From IMG/VR virus record IMGVR_UViG_2541047699_000011: a stretch of DNA of 10,189 nucleotides, one strand, 5' to 3'. This document shows, in pieces, positions 4,182 through 10,189 of this stretch. The notes under the pieces are model-generated. The model had not been told where the DNA came from, searched no databases, and saw only the letters and a list, made by a program, of their open reading frames with translations. The DNA comes from a virus. Its lineage: Duplodnaviria > Heunggongvirae > Uroviricota > Caudoviricetes. The first letter of the stretch is position 1, and every line of letters starts with the position of its first letter. A program made the position numbers and the translations under genes.

Positions 4182-4397
4182 ATGAAATCCATGGATAAGT
4201 TAACAACGGGTGTCGCCTATGGCACCTCAGCAGGTAGTGCCGGGTACTGGTTTTTACAGTTGCTCGATAAAGTCACGCCCTCACAGTGGGCGGCAATAGG
4301 TGTGCTGGGTAGTCTGGTATTTGGCTTGCTGACGTATCTGACAAACCTTTATTTCAAGATTAAAGAAGATAAGCGTAAGGCTGCGAGAGGTGAATAA
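4182..4397 (+). CDS. essD: class II pinholin (phage-21 S type), 71 aa, dual-start motif
   Basis: [26 protein letters not shown]...[17 protein letters not shown] has two TMDs and a charged C-terminus [13 protein letters not shown]; Met1/Met4 dual start; GAGGTGGGG RBS; stop overlaps the next ATG (TAATG), as in S21-R21. Confidence 0.9.
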
Positions 4398-7300
4398 TGT
4401 CGCCATCATTACGCAAGGCTATTGCTGCTGCTATTGGTGGTGGGGCTGTTGCCATAGCGTCTGTGCTCATCACTGGTCCGAGTGGTGACGATGGCCTGGA
4501 AGGTGTCAGCTACATACCATACAAAGATATTGTTGGTGTATGGACTGTATGTCACGGGCATACAGGAAAAGACATCATGCTCGGTAAAACGTATAAAGGC
4601 AGCAGTAAGGGGCATACCCCGCGCGAAGCGAAGGACAACCTGAAATCCACGCAGTTACTGAGTGTGATCGATGCCATCAGCGAAGGGCCGATTGAAGGTC
4701 CGGTGGATGGGTTAAAAAGCGTGCTACTGAACAGTACGCCGGTGCTGGACACTGAGGGGAATACCAATATCTCCGGTGTCACGGTGGTGTTCCGGGCAGG
4801 TGAGCAGGAGCAGACTCCGCCGGAGGGGTTTGAATCCTCCGGCTCCGAGACGGTGCTGGGTACGGAAGTGAAATACGACACGCCGATCACCCGCACCATC
4901 ACGTCGGCAAACATCGACCGTCTGCGTTTTACCTTCGGTGTGCAGGCACTGGTGGAAACCACTTCAAAGGGTGACCGGAATCCGTCGGAAGTTCGCCTGC
5001 TGGTTCAGATACAGCGTAACGGTGGCTGGGTGACGGAAAAAGACATCACCATTAAGGGCAAAACCACCTCGCAGTATCTGGCCTCGGTGGTGGTGGATAA
5101 CCTGCCTCCGCGCCCGTTCAATATCCGGATGCGCAGGATGACACCGGACAGCACCACAGACCAGCTGCAGAACAAAACGCTCTGGTCGTCATACACCGAA
5201 ATCATCGATATGAAACAGTGCTACCCGAACACGGCACTGGTCGGTGTGCAGGTGGACTCGGAGCAGTTCGGCAGTCAGCAGGTGAGTCGTAATTATCATC
5301 TGCGCGGGCGCATTCTGCAGGTGCCGTCGAACTATAACCCGCAGACGCGACAATACAGCGGTATCTGGGACGGAACGTTAAAACCGGCATACAGCAACAA
5401 CATGGCCTGGTGTCTGTGGGATATGCTGACCCATCCGCGCTACGGCATGGGGAAACGTCTTGGTGCGGCGGATGTGGACAAATGGGCGCTGTATGTCATC
5501 GGCCAGAATTGCGACCAGTCGGTGCCGGATGGTTTTGGTGGCACGGAGCCGCGCATCACCTGTAATGCCTGGCTGACCACACAGCGTAAGGCGTGGGATG
5601 TTCTCAGTGATTTCTGCTCGGCGATGCGCTGTATGCCGGTATGGAACGGGCAGACGCTGACGTTCGTGCAGGACCGGCCGTCGGATAAGGTGTGGACCTA
5701 TAACCGCAGTAATGTGGTGATGCCGGATGATGGCGCGCCGTTCCGCTACAGTTTCAGCGCCCTGAAGGACCGCCATAATGCCGTTGAGGTGAACTGGATT
5801 GACCCGGATAACGGCTGGGAGACGGCGACAGAGCTTGTGGAGGACACGCAGGCCATTGCCCGTTACGGTCGTAACGTCACGAAGATGGATGCCTTTGGCT
5901 GTACCAGTCGGGGGCAGGCACACCGAGCCGGGCTGTGGCTGATTAAAACGGAACTGCTGGAAACGCAGACCGTGGATTTCAGCGTGGGCGCAGAAGGGCT
6001 TCGCCATGTGCCGGGCGATGTTATTGAAATCTGCGATGATGACTATGCGGGTATCAGCATCGGCGGGCGCGTGCTGGCGGTGAACAGCCAGACCCGGACG
6101 CTGACGCTCGACCGTGAAATCACTCTGCCATCCTCCGGTACCACGCTGATAAGCCTGGTTGACGGAAGCGGCAATCCGGTCAGCGTGGAGGTCCAGTCCG
6201 TCACCGACGGCGTGAAGGTAAAAGTGAGCCGGGTTCCTGACGGCGTTGCCGGATACAGCGTGTGGGGGCTGAAGTTGCCGACGTTGCGCCAGCGCCTGTT
6301 CCGCTGCGTGAGTATCCGTGAGAACGATGACGGCACGTATGCCATCACTGCCGTGCAGCATGTACCGGAAAAAGAGGCCATCGTGGATAACGGGGCGCAC
6401 TTTGACGGCGACCAGAGCGGCACGGTGAATGGTGTCACGCCGCCAGCGGTGCAGCACCTGACTGCCGAAGTCACCGCAGACAGCGGGGAATATCAGGTGC
6501 TGGCGCGCTGGGACACGCCGAAGGTGGTGAAGGGGGTGAGCTTTATGCTTCGCCTGACCGTGGCAGCGGATGACGGCAGTGAGCGGCTGGTCAGCACGGC
6601 CCGGACGACGGAAACCACATACCGCTTCACGCAACTGGCGCTGGGGCGGTACACGCTGACAGTCCGGGCGGTAAATGCGTGGGGGCAGCAGGGCGATCCG
6701 GCGTCGGTATCGTTCCGGATTGCCGCACCGGCAGCACCGTCGAGGATTGATCTGACGCCGGGCTATTTTCAGATAACCGCCACGCCGCATCTTGCCGTTT
6801 ATGACCCGACGGTACAGTTTGAATTCTGGTTCTCGGAAAAGCGGATTACCGATATCAGGCAGGTTGAAACCACAGCCCGCTATCTTGGCACGGCGCTGTA
6901 CTGGATAGCTGCCAGTATCAATATTAAGCCGGGCCATGATTATTATTTTTATATCCGCAGTGTGAATACTGTTGGCAAATCGGCATTCGTGGAGGCTGTC
7001 GGTCAGGCGAGCGATGATGCTTCCGGCTATCTGGATTTTTTCAAAGGCCAGATAACTGAATCCCATCTCGGCAAGGAGCTGCTGGAAAAAGTCGAGCTGA
7101 CGGAGGATAACGCCAGCAAACTGGAGGAGTTTTCGAAAGAGTGGAAAGACGCCAACGATAAATGGAATGCCATGTGGGGCGTCAAAATTGAGCAGACCGA
7201 AGACGGCAGGCATTATGTCGCGGGTATTGGCCTCAGCATGGAGGATACGGAGGAAGGCAAACTGAGCCAGTTCCTGGTTGCCGCTAACCGTATCGCGTTT

Positions 7301-7987
7301 ATTGACCCGGCAAACGGGAATGAAACGCCGATGTTTGTGGCGCAGGGCAACCAGATATTCATGAACGAAGTGTTCCTGAAGTATCTGACGGCTCCCACCA
7401 TTACCAGCGGCGGCAATCCGCCGGTATTTTCCCTGACACCGGACGGGCGGTTGACGGCGAAAAATGCCGATATCAGCGGTAACGTGAATGCGAACTCAGG
7501 GACGCTCAATAATGTCACGATTAACCAGAACTGTCGGATTCTGGGAAAACTGTCTGCCAACCAGATTGAAGGTGATATTGTCAAAACGGTGGGAAAAGCC
7601 TTTCCGAGAAATGGCAGTTATGCCAGCGGTACAATAACGGTCACTGTGTACGATGACCAGGCTTTTGACCGTCAGATAGTAATCCCACCCGTTCTGTTTC
7701 GCGGTGGTAAGCATGAAAACTTCAACAGCAACAACCAACAGTCATACTGGTATTCAACCTGTAAGCTGCAGGTACTGAAGAACGGACAGGAAATCTTTCA
7801 GCAACCCGCGACGGATGTCAGCAGGGTATTTTCATCCGTCATTGATATGCCAGCGGGACACGGCCATGTCACCCTGACTTTCAATGTTTCTTCATATGGT
7901 GCAAATAACTGGACGCCAACGACCAGTATCAGCGACCTTCTTGTTGTCGTGATGAAGAAATCAACAGCCGGTATCAGTATCAGTTGA
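4397..7987 (+). CDS. chimeric ORF: SAR-endolysin N-terminus (~66 aa, RrrD/R21-like signal-anchor) fused in frame to a lambda-J-type tail-tip host-specificity protein (~1130 aa)
   Basis: Residues 1-66, [66 protein letters not shown], match the phage-21 R / DLP12 RrrD N-terminus. From residue 67, [39 protein letters not shown]... follows lambda J from its third codon for more than 1100 residues. One uninterrupted frame. Confidence 0.85.
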
Positions 7988-8005: not shown

Positions 8006-8034
8006 GGGCGCCAGAAATGGCGCCTTTTTTATTT
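8006..8034 (+). terminator. rho-independent terminator after the J-type ORF
   Basis: GGCGCC-AGAAAT-GGCGCC hairpin followed by TTTTTTATTT. Confidence 0.5.
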
Positions 8035-8045
8035 GTGGAGTGAAT

Positions 8046-9356
8046 ATGGCAGTACAGATTTCAGGCGTGCTGAAAGACGGTGCAGGAAAACCAATACAGA
8101 ACTGTACTATTCAGCTCAAAGCAAAGCGTAACAGCACCACGGTACTGGTGAACACGGTGGCCTCTGAAAATCCGGATGAAGCCGGGCGTTACAGCATGGA
8201 TGTTGAGTATGGCCAGTACAGCGTCACCCTGCTGGTTGAAGGTTTTCCGCCTTCACATGCCGGGACCATTACCGTCTATGAAGGTTCCAGACCAGGTACG
8301 CTGAATGATTTTCTCGGTGCCATGACGGAAGATGATGTCATGCCGGAGGCATTGCGTCGTTTTGAGGTAATGGTGGAGGATGTGGCACGCAACGCTGAAG
8401 CCGCCTCTCAGAGCGCAGCGGCAGCAAAGAAATCAGAAACAGCAGCGGCATCGTCCAGGAACGCGGCGAAAACATCAGAGACGAATGCAGGTAACAGCGC
8501 GAAAGCGGCAGCTTCTTCAAAAACAGCCGCACAAAACGCAGCAACAGCGGCAGAACGTTCAGAGACAAATGCCCGTGCGTCAGAAGAAGCCTCCGCAGAC
8601 AGTGAAGAGGCTTCCCGCCGTAATGCAGAGTCAGCCGCTGAAAATGCCGGAGTCGCCACCACAAAAGCGCGGGAGGCTGCAGCAGACGCAACAAAGGCCG
8701 GGCAGAAAAAGGATGAGGCTCTGTCGGCAGCGACACGAGCTGAAAAGGCGGCAGACCGCGCAGAAGCCGCAGCGGAAGTGACTGCAGAGCCCTATGCGAA
8801 TATAGTGCCGCCGCTGCCTGATGTGTGGATACCGTTTAACGATTCACTGGATATGATTGCGGGTTTTTCTCCGGGCTATAAAAAAATAGCTATTGGTGAC
8901 GATGTGGTTCAGGTCGCCAGTGATAAACAGGTTAATTTCAGTCGCGCATCAACGGCAACATATATCAACAAATCTGGCGAACTGAAAACGGCGGAAATTA
9001 ATGAGCCGCGATTTGAGTGTGATGGCCTGCTTATTGAGGGACAAAGAACGAACTACATGCTCAATTCGGAAAGTCCAGCCAGCTGGGGGAAGTCATCAAA
9101 CATGGATGTGCCCGAAACCGGGACGGATAGTTTTGGTTTTACTTATGGAAAGTTTGTCTGCAACGATTCTCTGGTTGGGCAAACTTCGGCTATTAATATG
9201 GCATCAATTGCTGCAACAAAGTCAGTTGATGTCTCAGGCGATAACAAGTACGTGACAACCTCATGCCGTTTTAAAACAGAACGACAGGTAAGGTTACGTA
9301 TACGGTTTGATAAGTATGATGGTAGTGCAACAACTTTTCTTGGCGATGCGTACTGA
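8046..9356 (+). CDS. stf: side tail fibre protein (Stf-like), N-terminal ~436 aa, 3' end truncated by an IS insertion
   Basis: ATG at 8046 with GGAG 5 nt upstream; MAVQISGVLKDGAGKPIQNCTIQLKAKRNSTTV...GRYSMDVEYGQYSVTL matches the lambda Stf N-terminus, followed by an Ala/Ser/Glu-rich repetitive shaft; the stop TGA (9354-9356) is the first three bases of the IS end. Confidence 0.75.
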   Translation: MAVQISGVLKDGAGKPIQNCTIQLKAKRNSTTVLVNTVASENPDEAGRYSMDVEYGQYSVTLLVEGFPPSHAGTITVYEGSRPGTLNDFLGAMTEDDVMPEALRRFEVMVEDVARNAEAASQSAAAAKKSETAAASSRNAAKTSETNAGNSAKAAASSKTAAQNAATAAERSETNARASEEASADSEEASRRNAESAAENAGVATTKAREAAADATKAGQKKDEALSAATRAEKAADRAEAAAEVTAEPYANIVPPLPDVWIPFNDSLDMIAGFSPGYKKIAIGDDVVQVASDKQVNFSRASTATYINKSGELKTAEINEPRFECDGLLIEGQRTNYMLNSESPASWGKSSNMDVPETGTDSFGFTYGKFVCNDSLVGQTSAINMASIAATKSVDVSGDNKYVTTSCRFKTERQVRLRIRFDKYDGSATTFLGDAY

Positions 9357-9425
9357 AGTGGTTTACTGAATTTGGCCACCTGAACAGAGGTGATATGCTC
9401 ACCTCAGAACAACACAGGTGCCATA

Positions 9426-10189
<764 letters not shown>

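Follow-up and report, generated by a model that had tools for sequence, protein, structure and literature searches.

A phage-21-type receptor-binding tip at the end of a SAR endolysin::J fusion in a decayed lambdoid prophage

Judged by its sequence, the C-terminal segment (~155 residues) of the tail tip protein J encoded in the 10,189 nt of phage DNA analysed here (the window) is, relative to lambda J, another allele joined at a sharp boundary, the mark of a recombinational mosaic and not of gradual drift. We propose that positions 7529-7987 would specify the trimer-forming end of the central straight fibre together with an Ig-like receptor-binding domain, both of the phage 21 allele, and taken whole this explanation strikes us as probable. 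The gene that carries the tip is a relic in a defective prophage, in which the start of J has been replaced by that of a SAR endolysin gene.

Results

A J-type ORF that departs from lambda at both ends

A single long ORF occupies 4397-7987 of the plus strand and translates into 1,196 aa. An earlier reading made from the letters of the window (the sequence-only reading) had taken it for a J-type protein that tracks lambda J closely up to its last ~150 residues, and the translation of 7529-7987 is exactly the peptide quoted there, ending in STAGISIS and a stop. In a protein alignment with lambda J (NP_040600, from NC_001416), the ORF matches from lambda residue 3 onward with an offset of 64 residues, and the identity is 96.9% over ORF residues 66-879, 93.2% over 880-996 and 90.9% over 997-1040. 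Over residues 1041-1196 it is 46.8% (73/156), and this tail has a 4-residue deletion and a 5-residue insertion relative to lambda; set against the 96% (938/975) of residues 66-1040, the drop gives a Fisher p of 1e-52. The description as lambda-like is thus accurate for residues 66-1040 and wrong for residues 1-66, which are not J, and the loose alignment of the C-terminus is borne out: uniform identity to lambda J is absent there, with 90.9-96.9% upstream against 46.8% in the tail. Of three anchors said to be retained from lambda, FDRQIV and GIS are shared; VIDMPAG is shared only as DMPAG, lambda having IVDMPAG.

A Pfam scan of the ORF returned six families above their cutoffs (E = 1e-35 to 1e-43), in the order FNIII-A_GpJ, Phage-tail_3, Ig_J, Ig_J_second, Phage_Tail_Tip and Ig_GpJ_C. 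On the minus strand an antisense 611-aa ORF lies inside J (5378-7213), probably as the shadow ORF of a long, codon-biased gene. The features of the window are collected in Table 1.

Table 1. Features of the window, with coordinates counted from its first nucleotide.
Feature	Coordinates	Strand	Basis or remark
OmpC/NmpC/Lc-type porin gene, intact, 360 aa	2510-3592	-	Between Q antiterminator and holin gene
S21-type pinholin gene, 71 aa, overlapping the start of the fusion ORF	4182-4397	+	Pfam PF04971
5' fragment (codons 1-66) of a phage-21-type SAR endolysin gene (R21/rrrD-like), N-terminus of the fusion	4397-4595	+	
Deletion junction, 2-nt microhomology TA (R21 codons 66/67, J codons 2/3)	4594-4595	+	
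J trunk (hub domains, FNIII-A, two Ig-like domains)	4595-6989	+	Pfam, protein identity, informative-site runs
Lambda-type patch: alpha-helical shaft and upper central straight fibre	6990-7455	+	Identity profiles, informative sites
Crossover zone, lambda-like to phage-21-like, lower central straight fibre	7456-7528	+	Informative sites
Phage-21-type end of central straight fibre and Ig-like receptor-binding domain of J, including stop	7529-7987	+	
Ile1061 codon, equivalent of phage 21 I1025	7577-7579	+	Sequence; wild-type Ile kept
Pfam Ig_GpJ_C (PF12421)	7616-7984	+	Residues 1074-1196, profile 17-135 of 135
Ile1096 codon, sole amino acid difference from phage 21/ev017 (Val1060)	7682-7684	+	Sequence alignment
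Intrinsic terminator after J, GGGCGCC-AGAAAT-GGCGCC and T run	8006-8035	+	Terminator scan
5' two-thirds of phage-21-type side tail fibre gene stf, cut by IS	8040-9356	+	Pfam, DNA identity
IS3-family element	9357-10189		OrfA-like HTH_Tnp_1 ORF 9390-9728; annotated ISEc52-like in M1/5

The tip is a common domain of the phage 21 type

The C-terminal domain scored 129.1 bits against PF12421, for which the gathering cutoff is 26.2; the family bears the name 'Tip attachment protein J, C-terminal receptor binding domain'. The last 152 aa of the ORF are identical to those of phage 21 J (OL657228, CPT_21_21 / UMO75436.1) at 151 positions (99.3%). Twelve of the 456 nucleotides differ, 11 of them synonymously and one non-synonymously, an excess that in sequence terms indicates purifying selection. 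The single replaced residue, Ile1096, falls in a column that is Ile in 16/16 protein-database homologues and in A8 gpJ, and Val in phage 21 and ev017; V1060I, as the change reads in phage 21 numbering, is not among the published host-range mutations in the main text of two host-range papers. Over the same 152 aa, 125 residues (82%) are identical to A8 gpJ and 27 differ, and the count against lambda is 72/153.

The allele is widespread. When the 152-aa block was searched by tblastn against 50,697 phage records, 22 matched at 99.3%, among them phage 21, mEp460, ev017 and several gut lambdoid phages, and a further group consisting mostly of Stx phages matched at ~89%. At a DNA identity of at least 95%, the tip allele is present in ~1,080 records, roughly a fifth of the collection of 5,426 complete E. 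coli genomes.

Sequence matches in the PDB are to A8 gpJ713 (9wca/9wcb, E = 1e-150) and lambda gpJ (8xcj/8xck, E = 1e-100). A structure prediction, which the sequence-only reading had called for, was run on the last 200 residues: the AF2 model, a monomer of a protein that is trimeric, is mostly beta and of only moderate confidence (pLDDT 73.6), and its nearest neighbours are the gpJ central-fibre structures (Foldseek best matches 9wca, 9wcb, 8xck and 8xcj). Against the A8 gpJ tip the Foldseek E values are 8e-22 and 3.5e-20, which shows the same fold and subfamily; this likeness does not by itself fix the receptor, since phage 21, at 99.3% identity, uses LamB. Together with the Pfam score, these matches uphold the assignment of the block as the receptor-binding domain of J. 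The possibility that divergence from lambda is concentrated in loops was also considered and rejected, as identity is 43% in the predicted strands versus 55% elsewhere.

LamB is the probable receptor

The native receptor of phage 21 is LamB, as shown with knockout hosts (bioRxiv 10.1101/2023.04.13.536812; PMC11336670) and as given also in PMC12803456, and phage 21 lysed lamB deletion cells only after evolving (Borin et al., 10.1101/2023.04.13.536812). The J substitution I1025T adds the use of OmpC, and additional J mutations add that of OmpF (PMC11336670). Since the window's tip is essentially identical to the phage 21 domain, LamB is its most likely receptor, and we would expect with fair assurance from the sequence that the tip shares this receptor with lambda's. 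The earlier proposal, that a swapped tip implies another outer-membrane receptor, finds no support, the block being nearly identical to the J of an experimentally established LamB user. Indeed, the phage 21 tip is 47% identical to lambda's and yet uses LamB, so low identity is no proof of a new receptor. It counts against LamB that the exact J differs from that of phage 21 by V1060I within the domain and by a lambda-type shaft and upper fibre, which may affect receptor triggering.

Could the tip instead bind OmpC and not LamB? The closest solved structure to the tip, 9WCB, is that of A8 gpJ bound to OmpC of E. coli EDL933, and with A8 gpJ, DNA enters a lamB deletion strain by way of OmpC (PMC11338833). 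Outside the predicted β-strands, a portion that takes in the loops, the window and A8 agree at 91% of residues, Ile1096 is the A8 residue in place of the phage 21 Val, and I1025T by itself suffices for phage 21 to use OmpC. The element also carries an intact porin gene, 100% identical in phages ev017, PhiR57_1, 2G7b and others, of which ev017 and PhiR57_1 share the J tip; a Lc/NmpC-type porin encoded in the element that carries the tip would accord with an exclusion logic built around OmpC. Set against these points, the 99.3%-identical phage 21 domain is ancestrally LamB-specific, with lamB deletion hosts uninfected until mutation; the position equivalent to I1025 still has its ancestral Ile in the window; the replacement of V by I is conservative; and the 27 differences from A8 fall within a block of 152 residues. 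On balance we consider an OmpC-specific tip unlikely.

LamB remains the preferred receptor, and the sequence most likely endows the tip with a latent capacity for OmpC. Because phage 21 gains OmpC by one substitution, specificity in the 21-type allele class is labile, and we read this class as sitting on the border between LamB and OmpC. The Lc porin of phage PA-2, encoded at the position that the porin gene has in the window, lowers OmpC, and a link between the porin gene and a tip on the LamB/OmpC borderline is possible. A literature search for receptor data on 4A7, 4C10, 1W, 3W, ev017, mEp460 and the PhiR phages gave nothing usable, and neither the tip sequence nor other tested gpJ variants were found in the supplements of Brödel et al.

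How the tip would work in a virion

In lambda, the three Ig-like tip domains each insert four bottom loops into the LamB trimer; their lower ends spread apart and their upper ends draw together. Newly formed hydrogen bonds then put a twist on the beta-prism fibre, which is followed by a flip of the helical shaft and the opening of the tail tip (PMC11101478). The open and closed structures of A8 with OmpC (9WCB/9WCA) point to the same mechanism with a different porin. In a virion, the tip domain described here would lie at the extreme end of the tail, where its bottom loops would enter an outer-membrane porin trimer, and the splaying of the three tip domains would be relayed up the fibre to open the tail. 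The window encodes all the parts of the lambda-type opening mechanism, which has been shown for the relatives and is predicted by homology for this sequence.

A large deletion has fused J to a SAR endolysin fragment

In a three-way DNA comparison, the window is nearly identical to the phage 21 SAR endolysin gene up to 4595 and unrelated to it beyond, and at the N-terminus of the ORF only the first part of the Pfam PF00959 Phage_lysozyme profile is matched. The ORF does not, then, encode a plain J-type protein as had been supposed: residues 1-66 are a SAR endolysin N-terminus, and J lacks its own start. The junction was defined by comparing the window with R21 and with the J starts of lambda and phage 21, and J sequence begins at 4594. 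The native N-terminus (MGKGSSKGH...) and the start downstream of K and I are absent, J codons 1-2 having been deleted. Endolysin codon 66 is joined in frame to J codon 3 by a deletion of ~18.4-18.5 kb, a size estimated from annotated coordinates on the phage 21 and ev017 maps. On those maps the lost segment starts at endolysin codon 67, takes in the spanin genes, bor, cos and every head and tail gene before J, and ends at J codon 2. The RefSeq product name for the fusion ORF is just 'phage attachment tail tip protein J'.

Intact relatives have ~15.7 kb of head and tail genes upstream of J. Neither the window nor the 33-kb context of an identical locus contains head genes, or any tail genes besides the J remnant and the truncated stf. 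With these genes lost the prophage cannot assemble a tail, and the tip cannot act in a virion of its own; in this genome it would serve only as recombination stock for incoming lambdoid phages.

The junction was found in 79 of the 5,426 complete E. coli genomes, in copies that are ~100% identical, with most of these genomes retaining an unbroken fusion ORF. An in-frame ORF of 1,196 codons that is identical in most of these genomes, keeps the SAR membrane segment and lies directly behind an intact holin gene and the Q antiterminator gene might suggest a host protein exapted from the fusion, for instance a membrane-anchored or periplasmic porin binder for superinfection exclusion. We regard this as highly improbable, as the near-identity of the copies points to recent common descent, under which an ORF stays intact without any selective signal; IS4 interrupts the ORF in two strains, FDAARGOS_536 and AREA_492; one in three random deletions is in frame; and J works as a trimer within the tail tip, alongside partner proteins that this prophage lacks. 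Recent clonal descent accounts for the intact ORF in most of the 79 genomes, although it does not prove that function is lacking. There is only a very slim chance that a putative SAR-endolysin(1-66)::J(3-end) protein is expressed and would tether a porin-binding J fragment to the envelope as an exclusion factor or porin modulator, and not as part of a tail. The fusion is best regarded as the by-product of the deletion.

The allele boundary within the central straight fibre

The boundary was mapped by setting the window against both lambda and phage 21, using identity profiles and the sites at which lambda and phage 21 differ. From the start of J to about residue 880 all three are 95-100% alike, and the trunk of the window's J is about equally near to both (96.9% to lambda and 97.4% to phage 21 in protein). 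Within the trunk (4592-6990), lambda-like and 21-like runs of informative sites alternate at a fine scale, with 21-like runs at, for example, 5792-5891 and 6192-6591 and a lambda-like run at 6592-6791; such a pattern of sites points to a history of numerous small exchanges between lambdoid J genes.

The shaft and upper fibre that follow, named after the J domains of PMC11101478, are of the lambda type. The DNA identity of this patch is 0.9-0.98 to lambda versus 0.26-0.7 to phage 21, and residues 880-996, 93.2% identical to lambda, are 54.7% identical to phage 21, which across these coordinates is only 10-60% identical to the window and carries a 28-aa insertion. Across 6992-7391, the informative sites divide ~109 to 17 in favour of lambda over phage 21. 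After ~7460 the DNA identity to lambda drops from 0.93-0.98 to 0.45-0.6; informative sites are mixed over 7456-7516 and are all of the phage 21 type from 7516 on. Identity to phage 21 J is 95.5% over residues 997-1040 and 95-99% over residues 997-1196. The informative sites thus place the switch at ~7455-7516, and the start at 7529 given in the sequence-only reading lies just downstream, within ~70 nt of it.

Similarity to phage 21 was not seen to end at the J stop, nor was a gradual rise of divergence from lambda seen; an identity of 95-100% continues past the stop through the terminator (8006-8035) into stf, as far as 9356. Since the locus as a whole resembles phage 21, a tip of the 21 type represents its native condition, and it is the lambda-type segment at 6990-7455 that is the exchanged piece relative to phage 21. 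The earlier notion of a mosaic swap was therefore sound as regards a recombination joint relative to lambda, and mistaken as to which part had moved: the shaft patch, and not the tip. Relative to lambda, the allele boundary at ~7455-7516 would be that joint. The same composite of lambda-type shaft and 21-type tip is known from isolated phages too, occurring in Lambda_4C10, 4A7, 1W and 3W at 97.7% nucleotide identity over 6900-7987.

An origin of the divergent tip in situ, through accelerated point mutation or diversifying selection and with no exchange of modules, is effectively refuted at the sequence level, even though receptor-binding tips are known targets of diversifying selection and laboratory evolution of lambda and phage 21 alters J through point mutations. 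The DNA of the block matches phage 21 at 95-99%, with the identity running on past the stop into the terminator and stf, the informative sites switch abruptly, differences from phage 21 are 11:1 synonymous to non-synonymous, and the block has indels relative to lambda.

Neighbouring genes and the host prophage

The gene that overlaps the start of the fusion ORF matches PF04971, 'Bacteriophage P21 holin S', at E = 2e-35 and is annotated essD in identical genomes. Downstream of J, a site homologous to the terminator is annotated in phage 21, and there is no lom gene between J and stf. The latter (Pfam phage_tail_N, E = 2e-67) has ~100% DNA identity to phage 21 stf up to ~9290-9350 and is interrupted at about codon 438 of 686, phage 21 stf being 2,061 nt long. 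At this stf site the IS is present in no complete E. coli genome of the collection, in which the best matches end at 9353; E. coli M1/5 covers 100% of the window, but the IS part matches another IS copy there. The end of the window may reflect either a lineage outside the genome collection or an IS-mediated rearrangement.

At an identical locus (L002, in the context of NZ_CP054345, 1-33353), the icd attachment site is occupied by a phage-21-like prophage in decay. Its intE is frameshifted and its early genes are disrupted by IS elements, and it also contains replication genes, a gene for a 1,302-aa inverse autotransporter and, after the tail fibre genes, sitABCD; intact phage 21 and ev017 likewise carry sitABCD next to their tail fibre genes. 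At this locus (20046-22106) RefSeq divides stf between a pseudogene ('incomplete N-terminal domain') and a separate CDS ('head spike fiber domain'), a split that looks inconsistent with the one continuous ORF of the window and its ~100% likeness to phage 21 stf. An Rfam scan of the window gave no match. The sRNA svsR of icd-integrated lambdoid prophages is located at the end of cI (PMC12803456), a site that falls outside the window.

Discussion

The nearest known system is phage 21, with which the window shares the last 152 aa of J at all positions but one, the terminator, stf and the lack of lom, and with which its prophage shares the S21 pinholin, the SAR endolysin, the sitABCD cargo and the icd attachment site. 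The J of phage 21 differs in being an intact 1,160-aa protein in a viable phage, with a shaft and upper fibre of its own (55% identity over window residues 880-996, with the 28-aa insertion) and Val1060; phage 21 also has tRNA genes between Q and S, where the window has the porin gene. Phages Lambda_4C10, 4A7, 1W and 3W, which were deposited as complete genomes, have the same composite J as the window, but in full-length J genes.

Two further systems offer structural parallels. A8 gpJ (9WCA, closed; 9WCB, open with OmpC; Brödel et al., 2024, PMC11338833) likewise joins a foreign tip to a lambda trunk and is the best structural match; within its 82% identity over the last 152 aa, a long 18-residue loop and a 12-residue segment are identical to those of the window. 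In contrast to the window's J, it is an engineered chimera with 27 substitutions in the tip and a demonstrated OmpC receptor, whereas LamB is the receptor of the natural relative nearest to the window. Lambda J (8XCJ/8XCK, gpJ713 with and without LamB) is 96% identical from J residue 3 to ~976 and has the same domain order, a tip of the same Pfam family and fold and, probably, the same receptor. It is unlike the window in its tip, which is 47% identical and offset by the 4-residue deletion and 5-residue insertion, and lambda has lom between J and stf.

The tip allele, its receptor biology and the structures of its close relatives are already published; the observation is real but ordinary, and the tip, a known allele in a prophage relic, adds little that is new. 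What can be taken from it is, first, that low identity to the lambda J tip does not amount to a different receptor: phage 21, at 47%, uses LamB, and its 82% relative uses OmpC. Second, annotation as tip protein J hides an endolysin::J fusion left by a large deletion. Finally, defective prophages of this kind keep ready-made host-range modules, which incoming lambdoid phages could acquire by recombination.
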